A program made the position numbers and the translations under genes. From an uncultured Gammaproteobacteria bacterium (GTDB lineage Bacteria > Patescibacteriota > Microgenomatia > 2-02-FULL-39-11), in assembly GCA_964362665.1 (NCBI GenBank), contig CAYIFB010000001.1, forward strand, positions 48,308 through 112,307: a stretch of 64,000 nucleotides of DNA. Reading direction: 5' to 3'. This document shows, in pieces, positions 9,312 to 53,988 of the stretch. The notes below the pieces were generated by a model. The model saw only the letters and a program-made list of their open reading frames with translations. It ran no database searches and was not told where the DNA came from. How positions within the stretch are numbered: position 1 is the first letter of the stretch; every line of letters starts with the position of its first letter.

Positions 9312-9312
9312 T

Positions 9313-14070: not shown

Positions 14071-14151
14071 CAAATTTATAGAAAAAATCTATGTTATTAA
14101 TTAATACTATAGAGACTTTACAAAAGACCTATAGCATGATATAATATATAA

Positions 14152-17528: not shown

Positions 17529-17530
17529 CT

Positions 17531-19987: not shown

Positions 19988-20008
19988 ATAGTATATACAT
20001 TCATTATA

Positions 20009-23567: not shown

Positions 23568-23573
23568 TGTTAG

Positions 23574-30644: not shown

Positions 30645-30660
30645 TATTATATATACTTGA

Positions 30661-33412: not shown

Positions 33413-33990
33413 CCCGCTGGTTTTATCTGACCGGTGGAACTGCTCTTTCGGAAGATATTGATCTGTTTTCTACAAGTGAAGTAGATGATAAGACTATTGA
33501 TAAATTTTTGGATGATATTCGTCCACAACTGCAAATTACTTCAATAAAAAAAGACCATATTTCAGGATTGTTCTTATATAAATTAACTTTTTCAAACGGA
33601 GAAACATTGAAAGTTGATTTTAATGAATATGCATTTGAACCAATTGAAAAAAGTACTAAAAATTTCGGGAAATTACAGGTAGACAGTTTCTACGATATAG
33701 CAGTAAATAAAGCCTATACCATATCGGGACGCTTTAAATCTCGTGATTTTATCGATCTCTATTTTATCCTCATTCGAGAGGAATTCTCTTTTGAACAAAT
33801 TCTTTCGCGTGTACCAGATAAATTTGGAGTGCAGATCGATTCAGTATTTTATGCAAGCCAACTTCTTCGGGCAGGTGATTTGCCAAAAGATTATCCCCCT
33901 ATGCTTGTCCCTTTTGAATTTGATGATATGGTGAAGTTTTTTGTGAAAGAAGCAAAACGATTGGGAAAAAAGGCTTTTAAGAACCCTTGA
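33343..33990 (+). CDS. Nucleotidyltransferase, AbiEii/AbiGii-toxin-like. Paralog of 9849-10565.
   Basis: WFYLTGGTALSEDIDLFS nucleotidyltransferase motif. Similar length and architecture to the first copy. Confidence 0.6.
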   Translation: MGKTILTPTQRKFLECIQNYEEITRWFYLTGGTALSEDIDLFSTSEVDDKTIDKFLDDIRPQLQITSIKKDHISGLFLYKLTFSNGETLKVDFNEYAFEPIEKSTKNFGKLQVDSFYDIAVNKAYTISGRFKSRDFIDLYFILIREEFSFEQILSRVPDKFGVQIDSVFYASQLLRAGDLPKDYPPMLVPFEFDDMVKFFVKEAKRLGKKAFKNP

Positions 33991-37085: not shown

Positions 37086-37900
37086 TTTTTAACCCTCTTT
37101 CCCATTAGAGTCACGAGCTTGTTTCCCTTATTAAATGAGAGAGAATAAAAATGATTGTGTCTTTGAATAAATGCAAATGCATTTTTTGTCGGCGGTTTCG
37201 TATGAGGGTCAAAAGTGAGAAGCTGTGCGGATAGAAGTGTTATTATTCTGGTAAGATCTTTGATCTTTGTTGTCCGGTAAAATTTTGCTTTGCGTAAAAA
37301 AAATATTCTTCCGACGAGATAATGCTGTTGAGTTTTTTTTATCCAGTCATTTTTTTCCCTGACTGGAGACTGGAATCCATAATATTTTTCTCCTATTTTT
37401 CTTACAATGAGGATGTCATCTGAAAAAGCCTGGAAACGCGGGTGTAAAAGTTTCATAGCCGTAGATTTTCCGCCCTCTGATTTAGCACAAAAGAGGAAAA
37501 GACTATTGTTTACGATTGATGCTGAAGTATGCAGAAGGAATCCGTCAGATCTTGAAGCAAGTGTTTGAAGTGCCGTAAGCAATATTAAATTAAACTGGTT
37601 TATGCTTATATGTTGGAATGAAAGAATTTTATATCTGTGTAATTTAAAAAAATGAAGCAGTCCTAAATTAGCATCTTTTGTTTTTCTCGTGAATATCGAT
37701 GGAAAATGTTGGAATAGATGAATGGTAAAATCTATTTTCGAAAGTTTCTTATTAGTTAGAAAAGCTGAATAGTGTTTTTTGATGTCATTCGATAGAGATT
37801 GATTTATCCAAGAGTCATGAATTTCTCTTTCTTGAGTAGGATTTAGAATAATCCTTATATTAAAGCCTCCGGTATAAAGGTCTATCCTCTGTGTTTTCAT
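37082..37900 (-). CDS. HPr-kinase-like P-loop kinase, paralog of 34732-35547
   Basis: GFLLHTSASIVNNSLFLFCAKSEGGKSTAMKLL. C-terminal block …YYGFQSPVREKNDWIKKT aligns with …FYFYQSPVVEKYKWIKKT. Convergent with the peptide gene, which overlaps its 3' end (ATGA-style). Confidence 0.6.
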   Translation of the reverse strand: MKTQRIDLYTGGFNIRIILNPTQEREIHDSWINQSLSNDIKKHYSAFLTNKKLSKIDFTIHLFQHFPSIFTRKTKDANLGLLHFFKLHRYKILSFQHISINQFNLILLTALQTLASRSDGFLLHTSASIVNNSLFLFCAKSEGGKSTAMKLLHPRFQAFSDDILIVRKIGEKYYGFQSPVREKNDWIKKTQQHYLVGRIFFLRKAKFYRTTKIKDLTRIITLLSAQLLTFDPHTKPPTKNAFAFIQRHNHFYSLSFNKGNKLVTLMGKRVKN

Positions 37901-39254
37901 GGATCGTATTATACCTCATACAACCCATTTTCTGATTCTGTTTCAGTGGTATACTTTCTCTGTTGTGACAGCGAACCATCTTCTTATTTTAAATAAGCTT
38001 CAGAAGAAACGGGCTTTCTGGCTTAAATGCGAGGGCATAAGCATGCTTCCGCTGCTTCGTCCCGGCGATATATTATTCTTTAAGAAAATCAAGTTTCATC
38101 AGACGAAGATAAATGAGATTATACTGGTAAAAAAGAGTAATAAAGAGATAGTCCATAGAGTTATTTATAAAAAAAACAATTATCTGGTTACTAAAGGTGA
38201 TCACAATCCTTTGTCAGACGGGAGGACAAATCCAAACGACGTTTTCGCGAAGGTAATCGCAGTAAAGAGAAGTAATAATAAATTCGATTTAGAAAGTTTA
38301 TATCTTTTCCAGTCAACTCTTTACTTTCAGGAAATAGTGAAGGTTAATAAAGCTTTCAGGAAAGAAAAAATTGCTTTTGTCTTTCTGAAAGGCCTTCCTG
38401 TACATCTATTTTATGAAAAAAAACATCCCCGTCGAATATATGCTGACAGCGATATTCTTATTGATCAGACTGATTACGAGAAAGTTGAAAAGGTTTTTAA
38501 GAGGAATGGATTTAAAAAAGTTGATGCTTCCTATTCTAACCTCCATAAACTATTAAAGGATAAACCCACGGAAGTAAGTTTTGTGAAAAAAGTAAATAAT
38601 TTTCCAGTAGTCTTTGACATCCATTTTGAGCCGGTATTTCTAATGAATCAGCTTGGGAAGCTTGATGCTTTGTATCCTGAGAAATTCATGAGGCAGTTGA
38701 CTAGTGATTTCTTACAGACGAAACTAGCAATAAAAGTACAAGGAGAACAATTCTTTATACTTGATATTTCCTACTTAATACTTTACTTAGCTTTGCATTT
38801 TTTCCATCATAACTATCGGGGAATATTCCGGTTACATTTTTTAGATCAGGTGATAAGATTTCGCGCCAGAGAATTAGATTTGGATAAATTGATATCGGAT
38901 ATTAATAAATATCAGGTGCAAAACTTTGTTTATCCGGTATTTTGGTTTTTACAGAAATACTACTCGACTCCGGGAGCCAGTCTGGTATTAAAAAGTATAA
39001 ATATCAAGTCTAAAGAGCTAAAATATATAAAAGAAAATATCTTAAATATCAATATTTTTGATGATGAGTCGAGGGTTCAGGCGGGAATTGCCAGATTTAA
39101 AAATATTTTTCAGCTCTCCCCTTCCCCGTTTTGGAAGAAACTGACACTTATCTTTAATCTGCAGATAATTTACAGCGTTTTCTGGGTTGGGTATTTGAAG
39201 ATTAAAAATTATCACAATTCCCGGAATTTTAATCCGTTTAATTCCGGACAATAA
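37899..39254 (+). CDS. Fusion protein: N-terminal SipW/Sec11-type (S26B) signal-peptidase-like domain plus C-terminal NTP_transf_5-like 'uncharacterised nucleotidyltransferase' domain
   Basis: Peptidase boxes CEGISMLPLLRPGDILFF (Ser), EIVHRVIY (His, ER-type) and TKGDHNPLSDGR. C-terminal domain IAFVFLKGLPVHLFYEKKHPRRIYADSDILIDQTDYEKVEKVFKRNGFKK resembles PF14907-type nucleotidyltransferases seen near lasso/HprK-related loci. The tail reads through a hairpin repeat. Confidence 0.5.
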   Translation: MDRIIPHTTHFLILFQWYTFSVVTANHLLILNKLQKKRAFWLKCEGISMLPLLRPGDILFFKKIKFHQTKINEIILVKKSNKEIVHRVIYKKNNYLVTKGDHNPLSDGRTNPNDVFAKVIAVKRSNNKFDLESLYLFQSTLYFQEIVKVNKAFRKEKIAFVFLKGLPVHLFYEKKHPRRIYADSDILIDQTDYEKVEKVFKRNGFKKVDASYSNLHKLLKDKPTEVSFVKKVNNFPVVFDIHFEPVFLMNQLGKLDALYPEKFMRQLTSDFLQTKLAIKVQGEQFFILDISYLILYLALHFFHHNYRGIFRLHFLDQVIRFRARELDLDKLISDINKYQVQNFVYPVFWFLQKYYSTPGASLVLKSINIKSKELKYIKENILNINIFDDESRVQAGIARFKNIFQLSPSPFWKKLTLIFNLQIIYSVFWVGYLKIKNYHNSRNFNPFNSGQ

Positions 39255-39298
39255 TATATAAAATTCCCGGAATTTAATCCGTTTAATTCCGGGAATTA
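39216..39298. terminator. Two tandem copies of a ~33-bp palindromic element (ccggaatt-N-aattccgg) between convergent genes. Candidate bidirectional terminator or regulatory hairpins.
   Basis: aattcccggaattttaatccgtttaattccgga (39216-39248) and aattcccggaatttaatccgtttaattccgggaatt (39263-39298). Both convergent ORFs end in …NSRN encoded by the palindrome. Confidence 0.4.
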
Positions 39299-39573
39299 AC
39301 TATAATTTTTTTCGCGAAAAGTTCTTTTTCCAGACCCAAGTAATCCTTTTGTGCTCGAATATTGGAGATTTTATATTTTTTTATCATCAGTTCGATTATC
39401 TCCTCCTTACTTAAACCCTTCTTGATTTTGTCAAAGATAAAAGAGGCTGTTTGGTTGAAGGTATAGAGCTGAGATTTCTCACCGTCAAAAATCGTAGTTT
39501 TATTTCCCAGTTTCTGGACGATAAAACCTTTGTTTATTTTATATTTCACCGTTGCGGATTTGGATGTTTTCAT
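39283..39573 (-). CDS. PqqD-family protein (RiPP recognition element / peptide chaperone-like)
   Basis: KGFIVQKLGNKTTIFDGEKSQLYTFNQTASFIFDKIKKGLSKEEIIELMIKKYKISNIRAQKDYLGLEKELFAKKII fits the PqqD pattern (hxxhxxgxxxhlxxxtgxhxxLNxtaxxIWxLldG…eihxxlxxxYdh…dvxxfhxxLxxxxhI). Confidence 0.6.
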   Translation of the reverse strand: MKTSKSATVKYKINKGFIVQKLGNKTTIFDGEKSQLYTFNQTASFIFDKIKKGLSKEEIIELMIKKYKISNIRAQKDYLGLEKELFAKKIIVNSRN

Positions 39574-40474: not shown

Positions 40475-42208
40475 ATGCTTTTTAATTTAGGTTTATTGTC
40501 CTTATTTTTTCTTCCTGTAATCGAATCATTCAGACGGGAGGCGGGATTATTTTTTCTCTGTCTGGGTGCCTTACTGCTGGCTTTAAATCCTCAACAATCC
40601 AAAAAAACTCAATTGGATTTTTCAGATCTTTTGTGGTTTATCTTATTGGTTGTTTTCAGCCTCTCATTATTTCATACCGCGTCCTACATCAGGAGTTTCA
40701 GCGAGTTTCTGCGCTATCTGTCATATTTTTTGATTCTTGTGTCAATTAAAAATCATCATGATCACACTAGTCTTTTAAAAAGTTTTTATTTACCCATGAT
40801 TGTAGTAAATTCCATAATTCTATCTCTTCTTAGCTGGTGGTATTTGATTCCGGTAGTTCACTTCTATACTCCTCCACCCTTAAATCTATATTTTGCCAAT
40901 TTCGGCCACAACAGACTTTCCGCCATACTTATTTTTGCCCTACCGATTACAGCAATATTTTCTACGCTAAGTTATAAGAAGAAATATCTTTATAAACTTT
41001 TAACAGTGTTTCTGTTTATCTCCCTGATTTTTACAGTTGCCCGCGGGGCATTTCTAGAATTGTCTTTTTCGTCACTCATCGTGCTTTTGTTATATTTTAA
41101 AAGAAATAGTGTAGATGCCCAAAATCCGGAGAAAAGACAATTGATGTCTTATGTGAGCTTTTTCAGCCTGATCACCATAATATTTCTGGTATTTAATTTC
41201 ATCTATTCAAATTTTTTCAATCCCTCAAACTTTCCTTTAAATATCCGCAATACTTATAAACCGGTTATGGGTGAATTAAGGCTTGAGTATATTCGGCAGG
41301 CGGTATCTGAATTTGCCAGACACCCGCTTCGGGGTACTGGACTTGATACTTTTGTATATGTCTCAAGAATTAATCAACTTCGTGGCAGTCAAAGTTCAGA
41401 TTATGTTCATAACCAATTTCTGGAAATTTTTACGGAAACAGGAATTTTTGGCGGTATTATATTTGCGGTATTAATGTGTTATTTATTGGTCAAATCATAT
41501 TCTCATAACAAGAAGTTACAGGGTCCAGATAAAATTTATCATTTGGCTGTAATGATTGGGCTTTTGGCGTCATACTTTTCTTCTCTCATTGATTACGATT
41601 GGCAGTACATCTCTATTTTTTTCATCTTATTCCTCGGTCTTATTCTGACATCCGATCATGAAGATCAGCCAAAATACGATATGCACCAAAATGGTTGGAG
41701 GATTTTTATATTTTTATATTTTCTGGCTTTTCTGGTCAAGTTTATTTTACTAAAAAACGTTCCTGAATATTCTAAGAAAATTGATCAGCTGATACAAAAA
41801 AACGAATTGGTTGCGGCAGAAAATTTGGCACTGCGATTTCATAAACTGGATCAAGGCGGCCAACCCGCGATTGTACGGCTTATTGAAATCTCACAAAAAT
41901 CAGGAAACGCAGAGAAGAACCATTATTGGAATGAACAGCTTATAAAAACCAGTCCTTATGATCAGGATTATACCCGCAGAGAAGATTTCCGCCTGTATCT
42001 CACAGACATGCAAAAAAAAGTTGTCCTTGGCAATGCGAATGATGCCATGAGTATTTTCAAGACATTAAAATCAAAATATCCGGATCTTTATCAGCAGATC
42101 AATAGTGACGCTTATTTAAATAAAATCATTCTGGCTCTAAATAATAATAATAATTCTGAGGCTTTGGAAATTTTCCAATCCTTAATTATTTCAGGTATGA
42201 AAATATAG
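40475..42208 (+). CDS. O-antigen-ligase-family membrane protein with C-terminal TPR-like soluble domain
   Basis: Multi-TM with a Wzy_C-like loop (…RHPLRGTGLDTFVYVS…HNQFLEIFTETGIFGGIIFAVLM). C-terminal ~170 aa helical repeats. Confidence 0.5.
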   Translation: MLFNLGLLSLFFLPVIESFRREAGLFFLCLGALLLALNPQQSKKTQLDFSDLLWFILLVVFSLSLFHTASYIRSFSEFLRYLSYFLILVSIKNHHDHTSLLKSFYLPMIVVNSIILSLLSWWYLIPVVHFYTPPPLNLYFANFGHNRLSAILIFALPITAIFSTLSYKKKYLYKLLTVFLFISLIFTVARGAFLELSFSSLIVLLLYFKRNSVDAQNPEKRQLMSYVSFFSLITIIFLVFNFIYSNFFNPSNFPLNIRNTYKPVMGELRLEYIRQAVSEFARHPLRGTGLDTFVYVSRINQLRGSQSSDYVHNQFLEIFTETGIFGGIIFAVLMCYLLVKSYSHNKKLQGPDKIYHLAVMIGLLASYFSSLIDYDWQYISIFFILFLGLILTSDHEDQPKYDMHQNGWRIFIFLYFLAFLVKFILLKNVPEYSKKIDQLIQKNELVAAENLALRFHKLDQGGQPAIVRLIEISQKSGNAEKNHYWNEQLIKTSPYDQDYTRREDFRLYLTDMQKKVVLGNANDAMSIFKTLKSKYPDLYQQINSDAYLNKIILALNNNNNSEALEIFQSLIISGMKI

Positions 42209-42251: not shown

Positions 42252-45200
42252 ATGACGCATAAAATAATTTCTGCGTTGGTTTTTGTATCGGTAATATTCC
42301 TCCTATTCTTTATCTCTATAAAAACATCGCCATTAAGCGAAGTATCTGCTGCTACCTACTGTCCAGCCTTGGTATCATATTATGTTGGTCCGACGGCAGT
42401 AGCACCGGCAGCCAGGATATCAGTCACCTGTAATTATGGAGTGCAATTGTCGTGTATTGGAGCTAAAAGCGCGCCAACTGACTATACAAATTGCAATTGG
42501 CTTGGTTTTGGGGGAAATAATAATGCGCGGTTTTCTTGTAAAGTTCCGGCTACAGGAGGATTATATACGAATAAATGCACACTATCCAGTGGTGGCGGTG
42601 ATGATTGCTGTGTCCAAAGTGATCCAGCTGGTTCTTATGAAGTTTGCTCGGAAACTGCCCCTTCAGGACTGAATGTAACTAACTTAACCAATAATTCGGC
42701 TACTCTCAACTGGACTCCGGGGACAGCTATTGCGGGATCGGTACAGAAGTTACGGGTGGGGGCAAGTGCAAATGAGGTAAATACCGGGTGTAATGGCGGA
42801 TACGATCCTCCACTTACTCCTGCGCCGACCTGTGTTATAAAATCAGATTTACCCTTGAATACTTCATCACAGAATACCGGAGCTATTTTGAATTCTAATC
42901 AACTATATTACTGGAGAGTAGTAACTTTTCAGAGCGCGGCATGTTACGTTGACAACAGACCTCCAGATCAAAGCTTTACGACGCTTTTAAATCCGACAAA
43001 TACTCCCATTCTAATACCTACGAAAACACCTACGCCGACGGTAACTCCTACTTCTACGCCTACTAATACTCCTACTTCTACTCCTACTAATACTCCTACT
43101 TCTACTCCAACCGCAACTCCTACCGTAACCCTTACCCCAACTCCTATTTTTACCTGCGGATTGACAGCCTGTCCTGACTTGACTTGTTCCAATCCAATAC
43201 CGGCAAATTGTACTATCTGTACTGATTTTCTTTGTACTCAGCCTACTATAGCGCCGACAAATACTCCTACCGTTACTCCAACAGTTACTAATACACCCAC
43301 CTACACTCCTACTCCTAGCAATACACCTACATCTACACCCACATTAACACCAACCATTACACCTACAAATACGCCGACAGTGACTCCTACGATTACCCTT
43401 ACACCGACCGTAACCCTTACCCCAACTCCTGTAGGAGGAAATTACTGTGGAGCAGGTTGTCCGGATTTGGACTGTGCCAATCCGACTCCAGCTGATGGAT
43501 GTTCCACCTGTACTGATTTTGTTTGTAGCTTGCAGCCAACTTCGACTCCTACTTTAACACCGACATTAACACCGACTTTTACCCCTTCTCCTACTCCGAC
43601 GAGTACACCTACTGATACTCCTACTCCGACTCTAACGGAGACACCTACTCCAACACCCACAGTTACCTTGACTCCGACACCCACTTTTTATAATGTTTAT
43701 GGCTGGATTTATACGGAAACAAATAATACTGTAATTAGAAATGAAGAACAAAACGAAGGATTAATTCCTAATTATACGGTGGACCTGACGGGAGATCAGA
43801 CTCTTTCCACAACTTCTCAAGGCTCTCCTATTGCCGGATTTTTAGCAAATTATATCCTAACGCCTCTTTATAATGGCATATTTCAGCTGGAAATGGTTAT
43901 CACTCCGACAGGCTATACACTTTATAAAGGACCTCCGGGAGCCACTCCTTCTCCTTATACCAACCCTAAAGTCGTTATTTTAGCCGGAGGAGACGCTATT
44001 GGTGATTTTCCGTTTATTACAATTACTCCTTACATAAGTCCAACAGCTACTCCGACTGTCACGCCGTCTTCTACCCCGCCTCCAATTTCGCCAACGCCTA
44101 CTTCGATCTGGACTCCTACACCGTCTGTCGGACCAGGAACACCAACACCTACAAACTACGTTTGTCAGACACTGCCGACACCCATTCTGAACGCGCCGGC
44201 AGAAAATCTATGCACCAATATCAAACCGACTTTCTCAGCATATGTCCTGGATCCGAACAACGATAATGTCTGGGGTCATTTCTATAGTACTGATACTATA
44301 TCGTTTGATAGGATCGGTTCAGTGGTAAATCCAAGCGGAGGTAATAGTACCTGGATACCTGACGGCTCTGTTCTTAACAGCTCGGGAGCTTATATGTGGA
44401 CGGCTTATACGGAAACATCTTCCTGTCCGCGCTCATTTGATGCTCCAGCTAATCGTTTAAACATGGATTATACGGCTCCTCCGAAACCTCAATCGCCAAG
44501 CTGTAGCCTGACTAGTCAAAATTATATTACCGGCCAATGTTCTTTTCATTGTAGTTGGAGTGCTGATCCGGAACCGACTCCGCAATCCTGCAGTGATACC
44601 AATGATTATCACCCTGTTTTCAGGACTGATCCGGGACCAGGAGCTTGGGATCCGGGTTGGATTGGTAACAGCTTATCTACTGATGTGACAACAGAGGTGG
44701 CCCAGGAATTGTATGCCAAAGTTACGGCAAGGGACGGTCTTGGTAACACTTCAGAAACTTCAGATGAGTCGGTAAGTGCGGTTTGCCCTGAAATTATTTA
44801 TTCCGTCTCTCCAACTCCCGGTGGTCCGACAGCAACTCCTACTGGAGGGGTTATTCCAACAGTCACTCTTACACCCACAGCCACTCCAACTCCAACCCCG
44901 GGTATTTGGACCCAGGTTTTCGGCGGAGATATTTATGAGCCGTCTCTTCTGCAAAGAAATGTACCTTCAGGCAAATACTATTTGAATAATATAGATGTTG
45001 TCCCAACTCCGGTGAGCGCCGGAATACTTTGGTCGACTTCAGGAGCTGGGGATTTCGGAAATGGCTTCTCATCTCCTACAAACTGGCAGGTAGGATCAAC
45101 TCTTTCCAATACTTTTAATTTTTCTTATTATTGGGAAGCACTCAAGAATAATCCCGCTGCAGTAAACGTGAATAGTACGGTGATTCTAAATCCTACCGCC

Positions 45201-45614
45201 GCAATTAATCTGTATAACGTCGGTGGTTCAGTTACCTTAGAGGCTAATAGTTTAATCTTACCGGCATCAAAAGTGGCCATCTTTTTGATTACCGGCACTT
45301 TGGAGATTAAAAATAATTTTACTATAGCCAGCGACGAATCAGTCGTTTTTGTCGTCAGCGGCAATATTGAGGTTGACCCTAGTGTGACCAGAATAGACGG
45401 GCTTTTTATGGACAGCGGATCATTTACAGTTGCAGCCGGATCCGATCAGCTTGTGGTCAACGGTATGGTTTATACTACAAATATGAGTTTAAACAGAACT
45501 CTTCGAAGTTTTACCACACCTGCCTATAAATTTATCTATCAGCCGAAATATGTGATTACATTATTGCCATACCTGGGAAGATCACAGGTTAATTGGCAGG
45601 AGGCGGCGCCATGA
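42252..45614 (+). CDS. Large secreted surface protein: FN3-like region, long Pro/Thr (TPT) linkers, a twice-repeated 4-Cys module (C-x2-CPDL-x-C-x-NP-x-PA-x1-2-C-x2-CTDF-x-C) and a C-terminal beta-rich domain. Candidate pilus-associated adhesin.
   Basis: Signal peptide. [15 protein letters not shown] repeats. Modules [32 protein letters not shown] and [32 protein letters not shown]. Immediately followed by a PilX-like gene and pilMNO. Confidence 0.5.
43006..43690 (+). repeat. Low-complexity (ACN-CCN)n tracts encoding TPT linkers, interrupted by the two Cys modules (~43147-43245 and ~43441-43535)
   Basis: Read directly (actcctacttctacgcctactaatactcct…). The antisense ORFs listed in the track for this region are artefacts of the repeat. 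Confidence 0.7.
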
Positions 45615-47006: not shown

Positions 47007-48035
47007 ATGAGTAATATTTTAATTGGATTGGATATAGGGTCCAGTTCCATCAAAGCTACCCAAATTTCCAGAGATAAAAATACATCTATGCTGCTAGCGG
47101 CAGGTTATATTGCAACCCCTGTCCGTGATGTTTCAAGCATGAGTGAGCATGATGAACAGGATTTGGCCAACAGCATTAACCACCTGGTTCATGACATGAA
47201 AGTTTCAAATATAAACGTGTCAGCCTCCCTACCCTCCTCAAAAGTTATTACCCGGATCGTTGAGATGCCCGCTATGAATGATAAAGAGCTTGCATCGAGC
47301 ATTCAATGGGAGGCCGAGCAATATATTCCATTTCCATTGACTAAAGTGAAGCTTGATTATGCAGTGGTAAGTTCAAACTTAGAAACACAAAAGATGAATG
47401 TTCTTTTGGTTGCGGCTCCATTGAGTTTGATTGAATCATATATGCGTATCATTACTTTGTCCGGTTTAAATCCTGTTGCTTTAGAGACGGAAATTATGGC
47501 TATAGGAAGAAGTGTCAGTTTCAGTTTGCCGAGCGTTTCTGATGTTTTGATAGTATCAATAGGAGCAAATTCCACAGATATTGCCCTCATGCATGATCAA
47601 ATATTAGGTTATACCAAATCTTATCCGATTGGCGGAAACAATATGACTAGGGCGATTTCCGAGGAATTAGGATTTGAGATTGCCCAGGCAGAAGAATATA
47701 AAAAAACGTACGGCCTGGAGGAAGATAAACTGGAGGGAAAAATCGCAAAAATTATCTCGCCTTACATCAATAATTTGATTGAAGAAATGGAGAAAACAGT
47801 TGCCTTTGCCAAAAAAACATATGTGAAAGCAGAAATTTCCACCGTGATGATTACGGGTGCAGCTTCTAAACTGCCCGGATTGGTAATGTCGATCACTAAA
47901 AATTTAGGACTTGATTCCCAGTTAAGCAACCCGTTTATCAATCTAAATGTTGATCCGAAAATTCTTCCCAGACTGACAGAAGATGCGCCGATTTACACGA
48001 CATCAATAGGTTTGGCTTTAAAAGAAATAAGTTAA
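47007..48035 (+). CDS. pilM: Type IV pilus assembly ATPase-fold protein PilM
   Basis: ILIGLDIGSSSIKATQIS actin-like N-terminus. Size and position before pilN/pilO-like genes. Confidence 0.8.
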   Translation: MSNILIGLDIGSSSIKATQISRDKNTSMLLAAGYIATPVRDVSSMSEHDEQDLANSINHLVHDMKVSNINVSASLPSSKVITRIVEMPAMNDKELASSIQWEAEQYIPFPLTKVKLDYAVVSSNLETQKMNVLLVAAPLSLIESYMRIITLSGLNPVALETEIMAIGRSVSFSLPSVSDVLIVSIGANSTDIALMHDQILGYTKSYPIGGNNMTRAISEELGFEIAQAEEYKKTYGLEEDKLEGKIAKIISPYINNLIEEMEKTVAFAKKTYVKAEISTVMITGAASKLPGLVMSITKNLGLDSQLSNPFINLNVDPKILPRLTEDAPIYTTSIGLALKEIS

Positions 48036-48039
48036 AATT

Positions 48040-48612
48040 ATGGTCAAGAAAAATATAAATTTGCTGATTGAAAAAGAGTTGGATTCAGCTCTGGTTGCAA
48101 AATTAAAATTTTTTCTGCCGATCACTGCAGCTATTTCGTTTATTCTCTTTATCATTCTATTTGTTATTTCGATTTCTTATACTAAGTCAAATCTGGCCCA
48201 ATATAACGTACTAAATGCTGAAGTAAACCGATTGGAAAGTAAAATTGATGAAAAGAAAAATCTGGAAGGAGTATATACGCTAAGTTATATTATTTTAAAA
48301 ACGATAAGTGAAGTTCTCAATAATAAAGTTAGTTTCATGCCGATCTTTAATGAAGTAGTGAAAGTAAATTCCGATCATCTATCCGTAATGCAAGCTTCCT
48401 CTGATGAAAAAGGTAAAGTGAACATGGCTTTAACCGCATCATCATCAGCTGACCTGAACGATTTGGTCTCTTTTTTGCACGAGAAGGAAGATAAGGATAA
48501 AATTTTTTCCAATATGATAGCTAACGGCATTGTCAAGAATAAAAAGGGCGGATACGAATTATCTGTATCATTAAAAGCGGATGATTCACTTTACCATGAA
48601 AAAACCAATTAA
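48040..48612 (+). CDS. pilN: PilN-like bitopic pilus assembly protein
   Basis: Short cytoplasmic N-terminus, one TM (LPITAAISFILFIILFVISI), then a coiled-coil periplasmic region. Gene order pilM-N-O. Confidence 0.55.
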   Translation: MVKKNINLLIEKELDSALVAKLKFFLPITAAISFILFIILFVISISYTKSNLAQYNVLNAEVNRLESKIDEKKNLEGVYTLSYIILKTISEVLNNKVSFMPIFNEVVKVNSDHLSVMQASSDEKGKVNMALTASSSADLNDLVSFLHEKEDKDKIFSNMIANGIVKNKKGGYELSVSLKADDSLYHEKTN

Positions 48613-49327
48613 TTATTATTTATACAAATTAAAAAAATATGAAATAGTTGGAGCGTCGGCATTTGTTATTCTGGTGATTTTAGGCTTGTCAATTACCTTT
48701 TTATTGCCAAATTTCCGTAAAGCGCAGGAAATATATTATCAACAAAGGGAGCTACGGACACGATTGACAGTTCTTCGGAAAAAAGATGAATTATTGTCTG
48801 CGATCGATGGTAAGGTTTATCAGGACAATATAAATAAATTGACAAGCATCTTACCGGGATCTAAAGATTATGTTTCTTTGTTTAATACTTTTGATAATCT
48901 GCAGCTAAAAAGCGGGGTGACGATCTTAAAAACAGATTTGCAGTTCGGTACCATATCTACCGCATCAGGTAATCTAAAAAAAGATAAAACATCCTCAGCC
49001 TATCTCATACCTATAAAAATGGACATTATTGGAGATTTTGATCAAATAAATGCCTTCATCAATTCTCTGACAGATCTTTCAGGACGCATGATCACAATGA
49101 ATAAAATTTCATGGGGAACTAGCGTGGAAGGATTATATACCGTTTCTTTAGAAGGTAATAGTTATTTTTATCCGTTGCCTTCAAAGATAGGCGGAGTTGA
49201 TTCGCCGCTCAAAGAGACAAATGAAAAAGATCAAAAGATTCTTGATAAAGTTGCCAGCATTCCTTTCCAAATAGAGGAAGAAAACAACAGTTCTTTGCCT
49301 ATGGGTAAACAAAATTTATTCAATTAA
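48581..49327 (+). CDS. pilO: PilO-like bitopic pilus assembly protein
   Basis: One TM (VGASAFVILVILGLSITFLL) followed by coiled-coil/ferredoxin-like region. Synteny. Confidence 0.5.
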   Translation: MIHFTMKKPINYYLYKLKKYEIVGASAFVILVILGLSITFLLPNFRKAQEIYYQQRELRTRLTVLRKKDELLSAIDGKVYQDNINKLTSILPGSKDYVSLFNTFDNLQLKSGVTILKTDLQFGTISTASGNLKKDKTSSAYLIPIKMDIIGDFDQINAFINSLTDLSGRMITMNKISWGTSVEGLYTVSLEGNSYFYPLPSKIGGVDSPLKETNEKDQKILDKVASIPFQIEEENNSSLPMGKQNLFN

Positions 49328-49998
49328 GGCTTTTTTGCGTATTTTTTGGAATGACTTTTTCTCCAGCTCGTTATTTCCAGATGATTGCCTGACATTAGGA
49401 CTGACGGAACTTTATACTTATTATACACCGGTGGCCGGGTATATTGGGGTGCCTCTAATGAATTCTTATAGGAAAATGATTCGTTAAGAAGTGAGTCTTT
49501 ATTTAATACCCCGTCTACCAGACGGCACACAGCATCGCAAACGACCATAGCTGGTATTTCTCCTCCGGTTAAGATATACCTCCCTATTGAAACGGATTCA
49601 TCAATAAAATTTTTAATACGCTCATCAAATCCTTCGTAATGTCCGCAAACAAGTATAAGATGGTCAAGCAGACTGTATTTCTGGGCTAGAGGTTGTGAAA
49701 ATTGCTGACCTTTAGGATCAAGTAACACTACTTTTTCTTTGATGGATTTATTTTTATTTTTTAAGCTAACTGCAAGAATAGCTTTATGTAAAACATCTAC
49801 TTTCATGAGCATTCCCGCTCCTCCGCCGTAAGGCTTGTCATCTACTGATTTATGAGGATCAGTTGCGAAATTTCTTATATCTATAATTTGCAGATTAATT
49901 AATTTTTTTTGACGAGCGCGTCCCAATATGGATGAGTCAAATACAGGATGAAAAAAAGTGGGGAATAATGTCAATATGGTTATTTTCACGAAAATCAA
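49324..49998 (-). CDS. trmD: tRNA (guanine37-N1)-methyltransferase
   Basis: YGGGAGMLMKVDVL and ILVCGHYEGFDERI (SPOUT knot motifs). Confidence 0.85.
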   Translation of the reverse strand: MIFVKITILTLFPTFFHPVFDSSILGRARQKKLINLQIIDIRNFATDPHKSVDDKPYGGGAGMLMKVDVLHKAILAVSLKNKNKSIKEKVVLLDPKGQQFSQPLAQKYSLLDHLILVCGHYEGFDERIKNFIDESVSIGRYILTGGEIPAMVVCDAVCRLVDGVLNKDSLLNESFSYKNSLEAPQYTRPPVYNKYKVPSVLMSGNHLEITSWRKSHSKKYAKKP

Positions 49999-50225
49999 CC
50001 GACGTCTATGCGGATCTGCTTATTATTTTTTATAGCCCAGATTTTGGAGATATTTCTGATAGCTTGTATGATTTTGCCCTGTTTACCGATGATTTTGCCG
50101 ATGTCGTCCTTATCAGCCGAAATGATGTACTGAATATTTAGATCATCAATTTTTGTTTCCGTAACTTTCAAATCTTCTGGCTTCTGGACGATTAAAGAAA
50201 TTATATATTCAAGTATTTGTTTCAT
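49995..50225 (-). CDS. KH-domain RNA-binding protein (YlqC/UPF0109-like)
   Basis: IGKIIGKQGKIIQAIRNI GXXG KH motif. Conserved position between rpsP and trmD. Confidence 0.7.
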   Translation of the reverse strand: MKQILEYIISLIVQKPEDLKVTETKIDDLNIQYIISADKDDIGKIIGKQGKIIQAIRNISKIWAIKNNKQIRIDVG

Positions 50226-50452
50226 TTTATCAGCAATTTCCTGACAGACTGCGTCATTTGGGCACCATTTTTAATCCATTTTTCGAGGCCTTCCCTGTTA
50301 ACTTCAAGTGAGACAGGTTTAGACAAAGGATCATAATAACCTAAATTTTCCAAAACTTTACCGGATCTTTTGGTTTGTTGATCGGCAGCTATGATCCGAT
50401 AAAACGGTCTTGATTTTCTACCCAGCCTGGTTAATTTAATTTTTACCGACAT
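50222..50452 (-). CDS. rpsP: 30S ribosomal protein S16
   Basis: MSVKIKLTRLGRKSRPFYRIIAAD…GYYDP is nearly canonical S16. Confidence 0.9.
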   Translation of the reverse strand: MSVKIKLTRLGRKSRPFYRIIAADQQTKRSGKVLENLGYYDPLSKPVSLEVNREGLEKWIKNGAQMTQSVRKLLIK

Positions 50453-50467: not shown

Positions 50468-51172
50468 TTATTTTTTGTTCCAATTCTCAAGTGCATTGGT
50501 GGCAGCTGACTGTTCAGCCTCCTGTTTATTTCGGCCAACACCCGTGCCCCAAAGCTTCGAGTTGACATATACTCCCACCGTAAACTCTTTCGCATGGTCA
50601 GGTCCCGTTTCCTTCATTACCTGATAGAGGGGTGAATTTTTGGTGGTTTCCTGGACGATTTCCTGATAAGTACTTTTGGCATCTTTATAAGATTTATCCT
50701 TAATAATCATGGGTACCATGGGAAAAATAAGTTTTTCAATAATTACTTTAGTAGTTTTAAGACCTAAATCCAGAAAAATTGCCCCGATTAATGCTTCGAA
50801 AGTGTCAGCTAAAAGTGATGAGTTTTTTCTGCCTCCGCTTTCCTCCTCACCTTTTGACAGCTTTAGGTAAGTTCCGAGATTTAGATTTTGGGCAATTTTG
50901 GCAAGTGTCGTAGTCTTGACGAGTGATGAGCGCAGGTTGGTTAAATATCCTTCGCTGAATTTCGGATAAGTATTAAAAAGAAAATCGGAGACAATAAAAG
51001 ACAATACGGTATCTCCTAAAAATTCAAGTCGTTCGTTAGATTCTATTTTATTTTTAGTTTCATTCAAATAGGAACGGTGATTGAACGCTCGAATTAAGAG
51101 TTCTTCATGGGCAAATTTAATATTTAGCTGATTTAAAAGGTCACTGTATTTTCCCATATCAAATTTCATCAC
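50468..51172 (-). CDS. rnc: Ribonuclease III
   Basis: ERLEFLGDTVL RNase III signature. C-terminal dsRBD (…GPDHAKEFTVGVYVN…GVGRNKQEAEQSAA). Confidence 0.9.
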   Translation of the reverse strand: MMKFDMGKYSDLLNQLNIKFAHEELLIRAFNHRSYLNETKNKIESNERLEFLGDTVLSFIVSDFLFNTYPKFSEGYLTNLRSSLVKTTTLAKIAQNLNLGTYLKLSKGEEESGGRKNSSLLADTFEALIGAIFLDLGLKTTKVIIEKLIFPMVPMIIKDKSYKDAKSTYQEIVQETTKNSPLYQVMKETGPDHAKEFTVGVYVNSKLWGTGVGRNKQEAEQSAATNALENWNKK

Positions 51173-51479
51173 TGTATTGTTCGATAAATACTATTAGATC
51201 ACTGACAGTCGTAATGTGTTGTATATCGATATCATCAGGCAGTTGAAAATTATATTCTTTGGAAAGCATAGATAAAGCATCAATCACTTCGATATTGGTT
51301 AAATTAAGATCTTCAGATAAACTGGAATCCGAATTTATTATTTCAGGGTTTACCCCGAATTCATCTGACAATATTTTTTTGATTACCGCAAAATTATCAT
51401 GCATAATATTTTTTAAGAAGATCTCCCAATACTCCGTTGATGAATAACGGACTTGCATCTCCGCCAAAGGTTTTGGCAA
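51159..51479 (-). CDS. Acyl-carrier-protein-like small protein lacking the phosphopantetheinyl serine. The probable start is the internal ATG at 51404.
   Basis: Aligns by eye along its full length with ACP. …VIKKILSDEFGVNPEIINSDSSLSEDLNLTNIEVIDALSMLSKEYNFQLPDD…ITTV…I.FI aligns with ACP …[51 protein letters not shown]…ITTVQAAIDYI. The DSL Ser aligns with Asn. It sits in the ancestral acpP position upstream of rnc. Confidence 0.45.
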   Translation of the reverse strand: MPKPLAEMQVRYSSTEYWEIFLKNIMHDNFAVIKKILSDEFGVNPEIINSDSSLSEDLNLTNIEVIDALSMLSKEYNFQLPDDIDIQHITTVSDLIVFIEQYSDEI

Positions 51480-51762
51480 GTTCTACAGCTTCGTCTATGA
51501 TAACTTTAACAGGCTCACGCCTTTCAATCAAGAGTTCATATGCTGATAAACGGAGAATTGCCAGATCTATTTTAGCTATTTTATCTATGGGAAATTGTTT
51601 TGCAGACTCTCGTATATACTCGTCAATCTTCTCTAAATTTTTTTGTATTGATAATAAATCCTTATTACGTGGTATGTCAGATTTTGAAGAAAAACTTACT
51701 GCAAAAAGCGCTTTTACCAAATTGATTCGTTTTAGGTGCCTGGGATCGCTGGCGTTTTTCAT
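51397..51762 (-). CDS. nusB: Transcription antitermination factor NusB
   Basis: …RINLVKALFAVSF… and …IDLAILRLSAYELLIERREPVKVIIDEAVELAKTFGGDASPLFINGVLGDL match NusB conserved blocks. Confidence 0.8.
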   Translation of the reverse strand: MKNASDPRHLKRINLVKALFAVSFSSKSDIPRNKDLLSIQKNLEKIDEYIRESAKQFPIDKIAKIDLAILRLSAYELLIERREPVKVIIDEAVELAKTFGGDASPLFINGVLGDLLKKYYA

Positions 51763-51917
51763 TTATAAAATCCGCATTTAGGGCATATTCTGTGGGGTAG
51801 CTTGAGAGTCTTACATTTAGGACACTTATTTGGCTTGGTTAAAGTCACCTTTATATTTTCGTTCTCTCTCTTGCCTGATCTTCTTGTAGAATGCCTTCTT
51901 TTGGGTAGTGGTGCCAT
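51759..51917 (-). CDS. rpmF: 50S ribosomal protein L32 (52 aa, below the ORF-track size cutoff)
   Basis: Manual translation of the minus strand gives MAPLPKRRHSTRRSGKRENENIKVTLTKPNKCPKCKTLKLPHRICPKCGFYK*. This has the canonical L32 N-terminus (PKRR.S..R) and zinc-ribbon CPxC…CPxCG. The stop overlaps the nusB ATG (ATGA). Confidence 0.8.
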   Translation of the reverse strand: MAPLPKRRHSTRRSGKRENENIKVTLTKPNKCPKCKTLKLPHRICPKCGFYK

Positions 51918-51939: not shown

Positions 51940-53988
51940 TTAATCTGCCGGAACATATGATATTTTAGCCTGTCTCAATTTATCCTGCAAGGGGGGAAAA
52001 TTTAAAAGCGTGTTATTAGTAGCCGTCTTCTCGACTGCAGTTTTAGTCAGTTTCAACATATTCAAATCACTAAGATCGGCTATTTTAAACGGTAAAAAAC
52101 CGTGTTGTTTTGTTCCATGAATATTGCCCGGACCTCTCAAACCCAGATCATATTCAGCTAAAACAGGACCTTTATCTGATTTTTCCAAGCGTTTAAGCCG
52201 TTCCATAGATTTTGAATTAGTATTATCCGAGAATAAAAGACAATATGATTGATACTTTCCCCGTCCTACTCGTCCGCGCAGTTGATGAAGCTGGGCAAGT
52301 CCAAATCGGTCAGCAGCTTCAATTAACATCACAACTGCATCGGGAAAATCGATTCCCACCTCCACTATTGGGGTGGCCACGAGAATATGTATTTGTTTTT
52401 TTTGCATAAGAGACATCACTTTTTGACGGTCTTTACTTGAAAGTCTTGAATGTAATAATCCTAATTTCAATTCTGGAAAAATTTCATGTGTTAATCTCTC
52501 GAATTCTTTTTTGACGGCTTTAACTGTCGACAGACTTTCCGACTCTTCGATAAATGGACAGATGATAAATGCCTGCTTTGTAATTTTAAAGCTTTTTGAT
52601 TTCGAAAGAAGTTGTTGCTTCATCCAAAGGTATGCGGAATCTCTTTTAATCTCGGGAACCACCCAGGTCTTTATTTTTTTACGACCAACTGGCATTTCAT
52701 CAATAACTGACAGATCCAGATCTGCATATAATGTGAGAGCTAGTGTTCTAGGGATAGGAGTAGCCGTGAGGCTTAAAAGATGAGGTTTATTTCCTTTAAG
52801 CCGAAGTTTTGTTCTCTGGCTGACACCAAATCTTTGCTGTTCATCAATGACAGCCAATGCCAGGTTATTAATCTCGACTTTTTCTGCAATCAGAGCATGT
52901 GTGCCCACATAAATATCGGCATGATTCGTATCAGGATGATTATCTGACGTTAACAGGGCTATTTTTATGCCATAAGAGCTTAGAATTTTTTTTAAAGTCA
53001 TGAAATGCTGATTGGCCAGTAGTTCAGTAGGAGCCATCAAGGCAGATCTATAACCATTTAAATAAACTGCATACATGGCAATAGCTGCCACCACAGTTTT
53101 ACCCGATCCCACATCTCCTTCCAGAAGTCTGTTCATTGGATGAGAGTTGGATAAATCTGATAAAATTTTATCTGCCGACTTTTCCTGAGAATGAGTCAGG
53201 CTGAAAGGAAGGTTGGTGATGAAATCACTGATTTTTGGAGCAAAATCTTCTTTCTTTATCTGAAACTTTGTAGTTTCTTTAATGTTTTTTAATTTGACTA
53301 ATTTATGATGCATCTGAAATAAAAAAAGCTCATCAAAAGAAAGCCGTCTTCGGGCATCCTCAATATCAGTAGGATTACCAGGGAAATGAATTTTAAAGAG
53401 AGCTGATTTTAAAGAAAGTAATTGATAATCAGATAAAAATTGAAGCGGTAAATAATCTTTGATCTCGCTTAGAAAATTTGTAAGTATTGAATATAATCGT
53501 GACCTGATCCATTTTGAGGAAACACCTTTCGTTTCCGGATAAATTGGGGTTAACCGCCCGGTATGTATTAAAGACTTATTTGATATTACAAGCTCATATT
53601 CAGGCGATTCAAGTATTAATTTGAATCCGTAAGTTGTGGCTTCACCGGCGATGCTGACATTTAGGCCGGTTTTCAATATTTTGGTAAGATATGGCTGATT
53701 GTACCAAACGAGATCAATAGATCCGGTATCATCGCTGAGTACAGCTTTTTGAATTTTTTTACCGGATTTGGTAAAAGAGTTGGTCATTTTAGTAATTTTT
53801 CCAATAACAGTAATCCTCTCCCCGGGTTGAATCAGGTTGATTTTAGTGACGACTGAGTTATTTTCATAGCGGGCCGGAAGGTGATATAAAAGATCCTCGA
53901 TCGTATTTACCGATAATTTATTTAGCTTGAGACTATAAGCGCTGCCTACCATTCTTAAGGAGTCGACGCTTGACGTTAAATGGAGCAT
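51940..53988 (-). CDS. recG: ATP-dependent DNA helicase RecG
   Basis: N-terminal wedge/OB domain. Helicase motifs LLEGDVGSGKTVVAAIAM (Walker A) and VIDEQQRFGV (DEQQ). C-terminal helicase domain. Confidence 0.85.
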   Translation of the reverse strand: MLHLTSSVDSLRMVGSAYSLKLNKLSVNTIEDLLYHLPARYENNSVVTKINLIQPGERITVIGKITKMTNSFTKSGKKIQKAVLSDDTGSIDLVWYNQPYLTKILKTGLNVSIAGEATTYGFKLILESPEYELVISNKSLIHTGRLTPIYPETKGVSSKWIRSRLYSILTNFLSEIKDYLPLQFLSDYQLLSLKSALFKIHFPGNPTDIEDARRRLSFDELFLFQMHHKLVKLKNIKETTKFQIKKEDFAPKISDFITNLPFSLTHSQEKSADKILSDLSNSHPMNRLLEGDVGSGKTVVAAIAMYAVYLNGYRSALMAPTELLANQHFMTLKKILSSYGIKIALLTSDNHPDTNHADIYVGTHALIAEKVEINNLALAVIDEQQRFGVSQRTKLRLKGNKPHLLSLTATPIPRTLALTLYADLDLSVIDEMPVGRKKIKTWVVPEIKRDSAYLWMKQQLLSKSKSFKITKQAFIICPFIEESESLSTVKAVKKEFERLTHEIFPELKLGLLHSRLSSKDRQKVMSLMQKKQIHILVATPIVEVGIDFPDAVVMLIEAADRFGLAQLHQLRGRVGRGKYQSYCLLFSDNTNSKSMERLKRLEKSDKGPVLAEYDLGLRGPGNIHGTKQHGFLPFKIADLSDLNMLKLTKTAVEKTATNNTLLNFPPLQDKLRQAKISYVPAD

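Follow-up and report, generated by a model that had tools for sequence, protein, structure and literature searches.

A serine-less protein with the acyl carrier protein fold, encoded upstream of rnc in a CPR (Microgenomates) bacterium

A small gene of an ultra-small groundwater bacterium belonging to a CPR (Microgenomates) lineage, called here acpX, encodes a protein of 81 amino acids that has the fold of acyl carrier protein (ACP), carries asparagine in place of the phosphopantetheine serine and is kept by purifying selection in the same way as its neighbours. In our opinion, acpX is probably a cofactor-free former carrier, a descendant of acpP, which selection has retained as a putative protein-binding module. 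The whole stretch of DNA that was analysed, 64 kb in length, is referred to below as the window.

The operon and the acpX reading frame

Open reading frame calls and Pfam assignments in the window place acpX within a tightly overlapping operon of the minus strand, recG-rpmF-nusB-acpX-rnc-rpsP-KH-trmD, which consists of the following genes:

51940..53988, minus strand: recG (Pfam RecG_wedge, DEAD and Helicase_C)
51759..51917, minus strand: rpmF, ribosomal protein L32 (Pfam Ribosomal_L32p); its last 4 nt are shared with the start of nusB
51397..51762, minus strand: nusB (Pfam NusB, 85.7 bits); its last 8 nt are shared with the start of acpX
51159..51404, minus strand: acpX, ACP-fold protein of 81 aa without the phosphopantetheine serine (MHDNFAVIKK...EQYSDEI; ORF and Pfam PP-binding)
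50468..51169, minus strand: rnc, RNase III (Pfam Ribonucleas_3_3, Ribonuclease_3 and dsrm; gene calls in identical contigs)
50222..50452, minus strand: rpsP, ribosomal protein S16 (Pfam Ribosomal_S16)
49995..50225, minus strand: KhpA-type KH-domain protein (Pfam KH_KhpA-B)
49324..49998, minus strand: trmD, start codon uncertain (Pfam tRNA_m1G_MT; gene calls in relatives about 8 codons shorter)

The gene order from recG to trmD given in an initial annotation of this DNA was thereby confirmed, as was its statement that plsX, fab, smc, ftsY, ffh and rimM are missing from the operon: the ORFs and Pfam assignments revealed none of them between recG and trmD. Scanning for promoters and terminators gave matches at the consensus level only, with no minus-strand terminator inside the operon.

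The start of acpX is the ATG at 51404, giving 81 aa. A longer ORF of 106 aa beginning with TTG was rejected as the gene, since the homologues share the 81-aa start. The length of the protein is steady at 76–87 aa and its frame is unbroken in every relative examined; the product is very acidic (pI 4.05, net charge −14). The 8-nt overlap with nusB recurs in relatives, and at the other end the rnc ATG overlaps the 3′ end of acpX by 11 nt. The rnc product taken from a GTG start had no exact match in the database; the acpX product did have one.

Fold, modification site and family features

The resemblance of acpX to ACP is far beyond chance. It matches Pfam PP-binding (PF00550) with E=9e-7 and 29.5 bits (gathering score 20.8), and about 60 solved ACPs match it over its full length with E-values down to 1e-7 (HMMER), in agreement with the full-length alignment that had been claimed for the small protein. 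The AF2 model (pLDDT 86) contains four helices, at residues 3–16, 37–51, 61–63 and 67–77; Foldseek superimposes it on the ACP structures 3gzl, 4dxe and 6lvu with a TM of 0.83 and also finds 5wgb, 8pk8 and the AcpP-MukB complex 9gm6. The equivalog models of NCBIfam for ACP gave at best 39.6 bits (cut-off 71) and 39.2 bits (cut-off 70.45), and all 14 listed models (TIGR00517, PRK00982 series) remained below their thresholds, TIGR00517 itself scoring 39 against 70.

Three short segments of the protein are of importance for the further discussion:

51294..51299, minus strand: codons ACC-AAT, Thr36-Asn37 (alignments and model)
51273..51311, minus strand: residues 32–44 (DLNLTNIEVIDAL), loop and helix II, the 'recognition helix' of ACP (conservation analysis)
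51162..51182, minus strand: residues 75–81 (EQYSDEI), conserved acidic tail with a hydrophobic end (tail census)

The segment 'edLNLTNIEvid' aligns without gaps to the solved ACPs and to those of E. coli and B. subtilis (HMMER, MAFFT), so that Asn37, encoded by AAT at 51296–51294, occupies the position of the canonical Ser36 (DSL) in every alignment. The initial annotation had read asparagine in place of the DSL serine, and the alignments with acpP homologues bear this out, with Asn37 rather than Ser or Thr at the modification position. In the model Asn37 is the first residue of helix II, and Thr36, which directly precedes it, is its probable N-cap.

Searches of a database clustered at 90% identity gave 167 family proteins at E<=1e-6, and among 1.84 billion clusters of 50% identity there were 36 representatives at E<1e-10. 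Its members come from Candidatus Gottesman-, Davies- and Beckwithbacteria (CPR/Microgenomates) and occupy the same slot throughout; organism names available for 2 of 20 acpX clusters were Gottesmanbacteria and Microgenomates. Scanning GTDB genomes with a degenerate DLNLS motif yielded 23 loci, five of them true small members of the family with confirmed synteny. Large multi-domain matches to the profile were rejected as members: the motif, where it could be recognised, was that of ordinary tandem DSL carriers, and the family motif was absent from all of them. By motif, two subfamilies can be distinguished, DLNL[ST]x[IL]E and DLGLGPVE.

Codons of orthologues at the Asn37 column are AAT, AGC, AAT and AAC. 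Throughout the NL[ST]x subfamily (n=79) this column contains N (22), E (15), S (11), D (10), K (6), P (6), Q (5) and other residues, ranking eighth in variability among the 81 columns despite the invariant N34 and E39 on either side. The GLGP subfamily has proline there in 111 of 112 members, preceded by glycine in 106. Small carriers from the same match list that do not belong to the family have serine in this column in 79 cases out of 91. Judged from these alignments, the loss of the serine is family-wide and old, and no local event.

Some members of the NL[ST]x subfamily may be modified, judging from their residues: serine stands at the canonical position in 11 of the 79, and most have Ser or Thr one position before it. 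Could acpX itself still be a carrier that uses a non-canonical site, either Thr36 at position −1 through a shift of register or Ser78 in the tail? We consider this very improbable. Ser or Thr at −1 in 68 of the 79 NL[ST]x members and the high conservation of the tail serine in both subfamilies speak in its favour. Known PPTases, however, transfer to serine, and the window protein has threonine at −1. The remaining 11 NL[ST]x members have D, G or N at −1 and the GLGP proteins mostly glycine; owing to these residues, seven members of the family lack a hydroxyl at both −1 and the site itself, including one (P0170) with confirmed nusB-acpX-rnc synteny. The residues found at −1 match S, T, D, N and G, the classic N-cap residues of helices, which agrees with the model, where residue 37 begins helix II. 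A shift by one residue, with Thr36 as acceptor, was rejected, as hydrophobic and acidic matches (L37/I38, D38/E39 and E41/D42) fix the register. No acpS, Sfp, fab or pls genes were detected among the approximately 58 ORFs of the 64-kb window, which thus holds no PPTase; in the CPR genomes studied by Probst et al. in 2020, ACP synthase and ACP-using enzymes were reported to be absent, and no PPTase was reported there either (PMC7242380).

The surroundings of the variable column are well conserved. Within residues 32–44, N34 and E39 are invariant in the family and D32, L35 and D42 nearly so; at the positions corresponding to E. coli D31, D38 and E41, 72–74 of 79 members have D, E and D. G17, N34 and E39 are invariant among family proteins that are just 30–50% identical to the window protein. 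A second conserved element is the C-terminal tail, which follows the pattern ExxSxE[LIF] in the NL[ST]x subfamily (SDEI, SEEL, SEDL, SQEL and similar forms) and reads EDLSLE in nearly all of the 112 GLGP members. The E. coli AcpP ends in ...NGHQA and is devoid of this family-specific acidic tail. The last pLDDT block of the acpX model averages 45, so the terminal residues of the tail are of low confidence.

Selection, patchy retention and origin

The dN/dS of acpX is 0.065–0.152, and that of the neighbouring genes is 0.06–0.14 (recG), 0.08–0.12 (nusB), 0.06–0.11 (rnc) and 0.055–0.175 (rpsP); acpX is therefore under purifying selection like its neighbours. Synteny of the gene is conserved even where the protein shares no more than 28% identity with that of the window (P0172). 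Retention is patchy, since nusB abuts rnc without acpX in about 31 of the 46 relative loci showing both genes. These relatives share the operon recG-rpmF-nusB-rnc-rpsP-KH-trmD, in which acpX is consequently dispensable, and the protein is no core requirement of NusB or RNase III. When nusB-rnc gaps of 100–600 nt in relatives were searched for decayed remnants of acpX, none were found; the long gaps hold a Nudix gene instead (six loci).

These data bear on the initial annotation, which had called the gene a streamlining scar and had left a choice between a decaying gene and an ACP-fold protein kept for another role. The idea of a functionless acpP remnant, perhaps kept just for translational coupling of nusB and rnc, draws on the absence of the defining serine, the clean deletion of acpX in related lineages and the overlaps of start and stop codons at both of its ends. 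Against it stand a dN/dS (0.07–0.15) equal to that of essential neighbours, a frame intact and a length stable in the relatives seen, a confidently predicted ACP fold, and the persistence of G17, N34, E39 and the tail at 30–50% identity. As to coupling, Daviesbacteria keep acpX with no gene overlaps, and in the relatives without acpX a direct coupling of nusB to rnc is seen to be feasible. Decay is thus largely refuted, and we regard it as the least credible of the explanations considered. The words 'scar' and 'decaying gene' do not suit an intact ORF in a large family with conserved features of its own, while a protein kept for another role fits the same observations.

Directly upstream of rnc, acpX takes the place that acpP has relative to this gene in loci of fatty-acid synthesis, and on this side it agrees with the acpP position that had been assigned to it; on its other side acpX has nusB, and fab genes are absent. 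In metagenomes the arrangements fabD-fabG-acpP(DSL)-rnc (L088), fabG-acpP-rnc (L105) and acpP-fabF-rnc (L110 and L107) were observed, fabG-acpP-fabF-rnc also being present, and B. subtilis has an acpA-rnc-smc-ftsY operon (PMC4838370). The occurrence of fabD-fabG-acpP(DSL)-rnc in bacteria synthesising fatty acids supports the descent of acpX from acpP in place.

It is also conceivable, although rather unlikely, that acpX is a carrier paralogue which was inserted later between adjacent nusB and rnc genes in some Microgenomates. The bare adjacency of nusB and rnc is the commonest state among the sampled relatives, and the Nudix loci show that the slot can accept other genes. On the other hand, the best matches of acpX are AcpP proteins of the fatty-acid-synthesis type, and it is acpP that sits immediately upstream of rnc in bacteria with this pathway. 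In a rough tree of RNase III, lineages with and without acpX are intermingled, a pattern that suits repeated loss better than repeated gain of one divergent family.

Proposed role and comparison with known systems

According to the reading that we prefer, acpX would descend from the acpP of fatty-acid synthesis without having moved from the original site upstream of rnc, in a host of the CPR (Microgenomates) kind reported to be without this synthesis. With the serine lost, it would no longer be phosphopantetheinylated and hence would not be a carrier; as the residue needed to carry fatty acids is gone, the folded, very acidic four-helix protein has probably been retained for another, protein-binding job. 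Binding without a prosthetic group would be its most likely mode of action. Canonical ACPs dock onto basic patches of their partners via the acidic face of helix II, and in acpX this face (D32, E39, D42) may form an interface together with the conserved C-terminal tail (ExxSxE, then L, I or F). A candidate partner would be modulated or stabilised on binding.

NusB, RNase III and ribosome biogenesis are candidates on this side of the interaction, suggested only by the neighbourhood; with acpP-rnc ancestry explaining this neighbourhood, little can be concluded on function from 'guilt by association'. A stricter proposal, in which acpX specifically serves the neighbouring products (RNase III, NusB, KhpA or the ribosome) as an accessory subunit or a regulator, seems to us doubtful. 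In all lineages having it, acpX is embedded in rpmF-nusB-acpX-rnc-rpsP-KH-trmD with overlapping codons, and the operon has no internal minus-strand terminator. Mitochondrial ACP, a part of the mitoribosome assembly module, offers a parallel. The adjacency of acp and rnc is, however, inherited from fatty-acid-synthesising ancestors and need not reflect function, and many relatives manage with this operon lacking acpX, six loci having a Nudix gene in its slot.

With similar reserve, we may suggest that acpX is a hitherto unrecognised cofactor-free accessory protein of CPR bacteria, which would attach by its helix II and C-terminal peptide to RNase III, NusB, a ribosomal assembly intermediate or another factor of RNA processing or ribosome biogenesis. 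If true, acpX would be a bacterial counterpart of the organellar ACP modules in Fe-S and mitoribosome assembly. More generally, and on the reading that we prefer, acpX is a clear case in bacteria of a cofactor protein of central metabolism that has survived the loss of its pathway, as indicated by purifying selection, the newly conserved tail and the repeated disappearance of the whole gene from sister lineages. To our knowledge, very few CPR-specific functions are understood, and this protein of 81 aa is a small and easily expressed target for the study of a CPR-specific protein interaction. In CPR genomes, automatic pipelines name members of the family 'acyl carrier protein' or 'phosphopantetheine-binding protein', labels that might wrongly suggest some remaining lipid metabolism in organisms believed to take up their lipids from outside. 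According to the present results, these proteins would be unable to carry acyl groups. Our search of the literature, incomplete in its coverage, gave nothing relevant on a Ser-less ACP in CPR, Patescibacteria or Microgenomates.

Among known proteins, AcpP/AcpA (PF00550; TIGR00517) has the same four-helix fold, length and pI (about 4.05) as acpX and shares with it the acidic residues of the recognition helix and the hydrophobic pattern of the core; in loci of the Firmicutes type, acpP also lies immediately upstream of rnc. The differences concern the motif, DLGADSL in AcpP/AcpA versus DLNL[ST]x or DLGLGP in the acpX family (Gly33 being changed to Asn in the subfamily of the window gene), and the DSL serine, replaced by Asn in acpX and by variable residues or Pro in the family. 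Moreover, acpX has the additional acidic tail, has no fab or pls genes nearby and scores far below every NCBIfam cut-off for ACP.

The closest precedent, by analogy, appears to be the mitochondrial ACP (mACP) of Plasmodium falciparum, a functional Ser-less ACP in which the Ppant serine is changed to Phe113; it binds the LYR protein Isd11 with Nfs1, and Phe113 is a part of the interface (PMC8547962). This protein was kept after the loss of local fatty-acid synthesis and of the PPTase, and its binding is independent of the prosthetic group; another LYR protein entry, L0R8F8, is mentioned in the same paper (PMC8547962). In both mACP and acpX the serine is replaced and the acidic residue of helix II at +5 is kept (D42 in acpX). 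The Plasmodium protein is eukaryotic and organellar, and common descent with acpX is not implied. Its replacement is a conserved hydrophobic Phe, while in the acpX family the site is taken by Pro or by hypervariable residues; at +11 from the site, where the mACP comparison has the acidic Glu, the window protein has Ser48; and the conserved novelty of acpX is its C-terminal tail, unlike the situation in mACP. We know of no LYR-type partner in bacteria. Partnerships of E. coli AcpP that are independent of the prosthetic group, for example its complex with MukB (9gm6), illustrate that the ACP fold can also serve beyond lipid synthesis, in the form of a small acidic subunit for binding, but such partnerships of E. 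coli AcpP represent moonlighting of a working carrier, whereas acpX has lost its carrier serine.

Gene order around the carrier-like protein

The minus strand of the window carries the gene order tyrS-recG-rpmF-nusB-acpX-rnc-rpsP-KH-trmD, in which acpX is the name given here to an ORF resembling acyl carrier protein (ACP) and to its family.

Genes of the tyrS-trmD block (ORF and Pfam evidence for each)
55331-54123, minus, tyrS
53988-51940, minus, recG
51917-51759, minus, rpmF
51762-51397, minus, nusB
51404-51159, minus, acpX, 81 aa (MHDNFAVIKK...EQYSDEI), Pfam PP-binding
51169-50468, minus, rnc
50452-50222, minus, rpsP
50225-49995, minus, KhpA-type KH gene
49998-49324, minus, trmD

Co-transcription geometry ties acpX to nusB and rnc: the nusB stop and the acpX ATG overlap (ATGCATGA), and the last acpX codons share 11 nt with the start of rnc. 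Overlaps also occur at the rpmF/nusB, rpsP/KH and KH/trmD junctions, and a terminator scan found no minus-strand terminator-like site inside the tyrS-to-trmD block. The absence of plsX, fab, smc, ftsY, ffh and rimM, remarked in the initial annotation, was borne out, none of them being among the genes of the block. A 106-aa ORF beginning at TTG was rejected as the acpX start, the 81-aa start being common to all homologues. The start of trmD is ambiguous (49974-49998, minus): the longest ORF begins at a TTG overlapping the KH stop, and gene calls on identical contigs begin about 8 codons later. Immediately downstream of trmD, the opposite strand carries PilM/PilN/PilO-like genes, an adjacency kept in all relatives.

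Type IV pilus genes are located at 5654-9846 (+) and 47007-49327 (+) and include a gene for a prepilin peptidase (A24) followed by pilin-like ORFs, six with N-terminal methylation motifs. A PqqD-like small protein (39283-39573, minus) adjoins an ORF (37899-39254, +) with an S24 peptidase-like segment and an NTP_transf_5 nucleotidyltransferase domain, and 37899-39573 may be a RiPP-type modification cluster. Two ORFs, 9849-10565 (minus) and 33343-33990 (+), encode AbiEii-like nucleotidyltransferase toxins of the type IV toxin-antitoxin/abortive infection family. Three very large ORFs (1044, 765 and 1120 aa) without a Pfam match were found at 10936-16449 (+) and 42252-45614 (+); GC at 42-46 kb is 0.42-0.44 versus ~0.31-0.37 in most surrounding windows, with strongly negative GC skew. 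Cell-surface glycan genes (16464-25485, 29460-32010 and 40475-42208) comprise three GT4 glycosyltransferases, a phosphodiesterase and two sulfatase-family proteins, another GT4 and two Wzy_C (O-antigen ligase-like) membrane proteins, and an asparagine synthase is encoded at 27733-29469.

The ACP fold and the missing serine

Residues 7-71 of acpX match Pfam PP-binding at 29.5 bits (gathering score 20.8), and about 60 solved ACPs were matched by phmmer (best E ~1e-7). NCBIfam ACP models span the protein end to end at ~30-40 bits, far below their cut-offs of 65-106 bits. An AlphaFold2 model obtained from a 42-sequence family alignment (pLDDT 86, pTM 0.70) has predicted helices at 3-16, 37-51, 61-63 and 67-77, and Foldseek gave TM 0.8-0.85 against the ACP structures of P. 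falciparum, S. aureus, T. maritima, B. subtilis and E. coli. It was shown that acpX folds stably as an ACP-type four-helix protein.

The loop and helix II (segment E-D-L-N-L-T-N-I-E-V-I-D) are gap-free against ACPs in every alignment (HMMER to PDB ACPs; MAFFT with E. coli and B. subtilis ACP), so that Asn37, with which helix II begins in the model, stands at the position of Ser36, the phosphopantetheine site of E. coli AcpP, and Thr36 at that of Asp35 of the reference ACP. There is no Ser within six residues of the modification site in the window protein, and Thr occupies position -1. The earlier claim that the phosphopantetheine serine has been lost was thus confirmed in all these alignments.

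When 1.84 billion cluster representatives were searched in full with HMMER, 36 matched below 1e-10, the small ones (76-87 aa) forming a coherent family with the consensus DLNL[ST]x[IL]E[IV]xDL ... TVxDL...IExxSxE[LIF]-COOH. In 79 members of this NL[ST]x subfamily the canonical serine column holds N22, E15, S11, D10, K6, P6, Q5 and single L, R, Y and A, and 72-74 of the 79 have D, E and D where E. coli has D31, D38 and E41. Flanked by N34 and E39, both invariant, the serine column ranks 8th in variability among the 81 positions of the subfamily. Ser is found in the canonical column of 79 of 91 other small carriers of the same hit list. Among close orthologues the codon there (AAT, AGC, AAT, AAC) toggles by single bases. 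A second profile search revealed a larger sister subfamily with the motif DLGLGPVE[ML]ADL, its named members being Daviesbacteria and "Patescibacteria group"; 111 of its 112 sequences have Pro in the serine column, and 106 of 112 have Gly just before it.

Position -1 in the 79 NL[ST]x members is S53, T15, D5, G4 and N2. The possibility that this Ser/Thr (Thr in the window) is a shifted acceptor was rejected because in seven members neither position carries a hydroxyl residue, one of them (P0170) in a confirmed nusB-acpX-rnc slot, and because the residue set is that of N-caps. Helices are classically N-capped by S, T, D, N or G, and the conserved -1 Ser/Thr is therefore best read as the helix II cap. 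A more apt description of the finding is a Ser-less ACP family, conserved and restricted to a lineage.

Selection, distribution and origin

A word-indexed database search retrieved 15 proteins at 78-100% identity to acpX. One of these is called at 99 aa from an upstream start and the rest are 81 aa long; those with a name belong to Candidatus Gottesmanbacteria, and contigs with the identical protein come from Hainich groundwater. Contigs with ~79%-identical orthologues keep pheST, PBP1, tyrS, recG, nusB, acpX, rnc, rpsP, KH, trmD and pilONM, together with an rpmF ORF, though it was omitted from their gene calls. For the window and three of these orthologues, Nei-Gojobori dN/dS is 0.065-0.152 in acpX, and 0.06-0.14 in recG, 0.08-0.12 in nusB, 0.06-0.11 in rnc and 0.055-0.175 in rpsP, with dS near saturation in comparisons with the window and 0.4-0.7 in the others. 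The gene is under strong purifying selection; its initial description as a scar or decaying gene was therefore wrong, and the evidence supports the other alternative offered, an ACP-fold protein kept for another role.

The nusB-acpX-rnc slot, set in tyrS-recG-rpmF-...-rpsP-KH-trmD, persists in Gottesmanbacteria (L016, L022, L037), Beckwithbacteria (L017), Daviesbacteria (L014) and several metagenome contigs, the lowest identity with the window protein being 28% (P0172/L038). The contig CAYUKQ010000003.1 (L018), labelled "uncultured Gammaproteobacteria", probably wrongly, carries tyrS-recG-rpmF-nusB-acpX-rnc-rpsP with identities to the window of 47-51% for nusB, rnc, rpsP and rpmF, 34% for recG and 40% for tyrS.

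Metagenome contigs were also scanned with an RNase III alignment. Among the best 80 loci, nusB abuts or overlaps rnc with no gene between in ~31 of 46 showing both, the operon being otherwise identical, and Ser-less acpX is present in two (L045, L074). A Nudix hydrolase gene (~165-280 aa as called) fills the slot in L081, L086, L092, L099, L108 and L116, and insertion of different genes seems to be tolerated at the junction. No acpX remnants were recognisable in the short nusB-rnc gaps of relatives. In a rough neighbour-joining RNase III tree, acpX-bearing loci are concentrated in one region and interleaved with acpX-less ones, which fits repeated clean loss, a single-gene tree of this kind being weak evidence. 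In sister lineages acpX is dispensable.

Secondary insertion of acpX between nusB and rnc is a less economical explanation of its position than descent in place from acpP. RNase III relatives outside the acpX group, in organisms with fatty-acid synthesis, have fabD-fabG-acpP(DSL)-rnc (L088), and further such organisms have fabG-acpP-rnc (L105), fabG-acpP-fabF-rnc (L110) and acpP-fabF-rnc (L107). The fuller B. subtilis order is presumably recG-fapR-plsX-fabD-fabG-acpA-rnc-smc-ftsY-...-ffh-rpsP-ylqC-...-rimM-trmD. Together with these loci, the B. subtilis order, including the acpA-rnc-smc-ftsY operon (PMC4838370), makes in-place descent the more economical origin.

Proposed function and comparison with known systems

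Patescibacteria have been reported to be without fatty-acid biosynthesis in published surveys (PMC12455944), and no fab, pls, acpS or Sfp genes were found among the ~58 ORFs of the 64-kb window. Probst et al. (PMC7242380) likewise reported neither ACP synthase nor enzymes that use ACP in the CPR genomes they studied. The non-carrier conclusion is independent of fatty-acid synthesis in this genome, since the whole family has lost the acceptor serine.

Fold-determining residues and the acidic helix II face are retained in acpX (net charge -14, pI 4.05, the same as computed for E. coli ACP). The family also conserves a short acidic C-terminal tail with a hydrophobic last residue (SDEI, SEEL, SEDL or SNEF in the NL[ST]x subfamily; EDLSLE, almost invariably, in the GLGP one), which the aligned E. 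coli AcpP does not have; its last residues are of low confidence in the model. The conserved face and tail point to a selected binding surface, not a cargo site.

In our opinion, acpX is very probably a selected, non-carrier protein. It would act as a small acidic binding subunit that does not need a prosthetic group, its helix II face docking onto a basic patch of a putative partner and its tail providing a second, family-specific contact; we consider this mechanism rather likely. To our knowledge, ACPs dock with all partners by the helix II face onto a basic patch. NusB, RNase III and ribosome biogenesis are candidate partners by neighbourhood, evidence weakened by the ancestral acp-rnc adjacency and by the operon working without acpX elsewhere, and a partner encoded in the operon is improbable.

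These proteins appear in the source databases as "acyl carrier protein", "phosphopantetheine-binding protein" or "hypothetical". The protein probably descends from AcpP and has its fold, but classing it as AcpP would be wrong, since it lacks the defining serine and falls short of every curated equivalog threshold. The finding puts right an annotation that misleads in CPR genomes, and it gives a tractable starting point for studying a protein interaction specific to CPR. In the literature searched, no ACP without the serine was found described for CPR, Patescibacteria or Microgenomates.

The closest functional precedent is found in Plasmodium and other apicomplexans, whose mitochondrial ACP lost the serine (Ser to Phe113) with mitochondrial FAS-II and the PPTase and is nevertheless essential because it binds Isd11-Nfs1 (PMC8547962). 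The replacement residue of acpX, in contrast, is not conserved, or is Pro. A further difference is that we know of no LYR-type partner in bacteria. The conserved novelty of acpX, compared with the apicomplexan protein, is its C-terminal tail.
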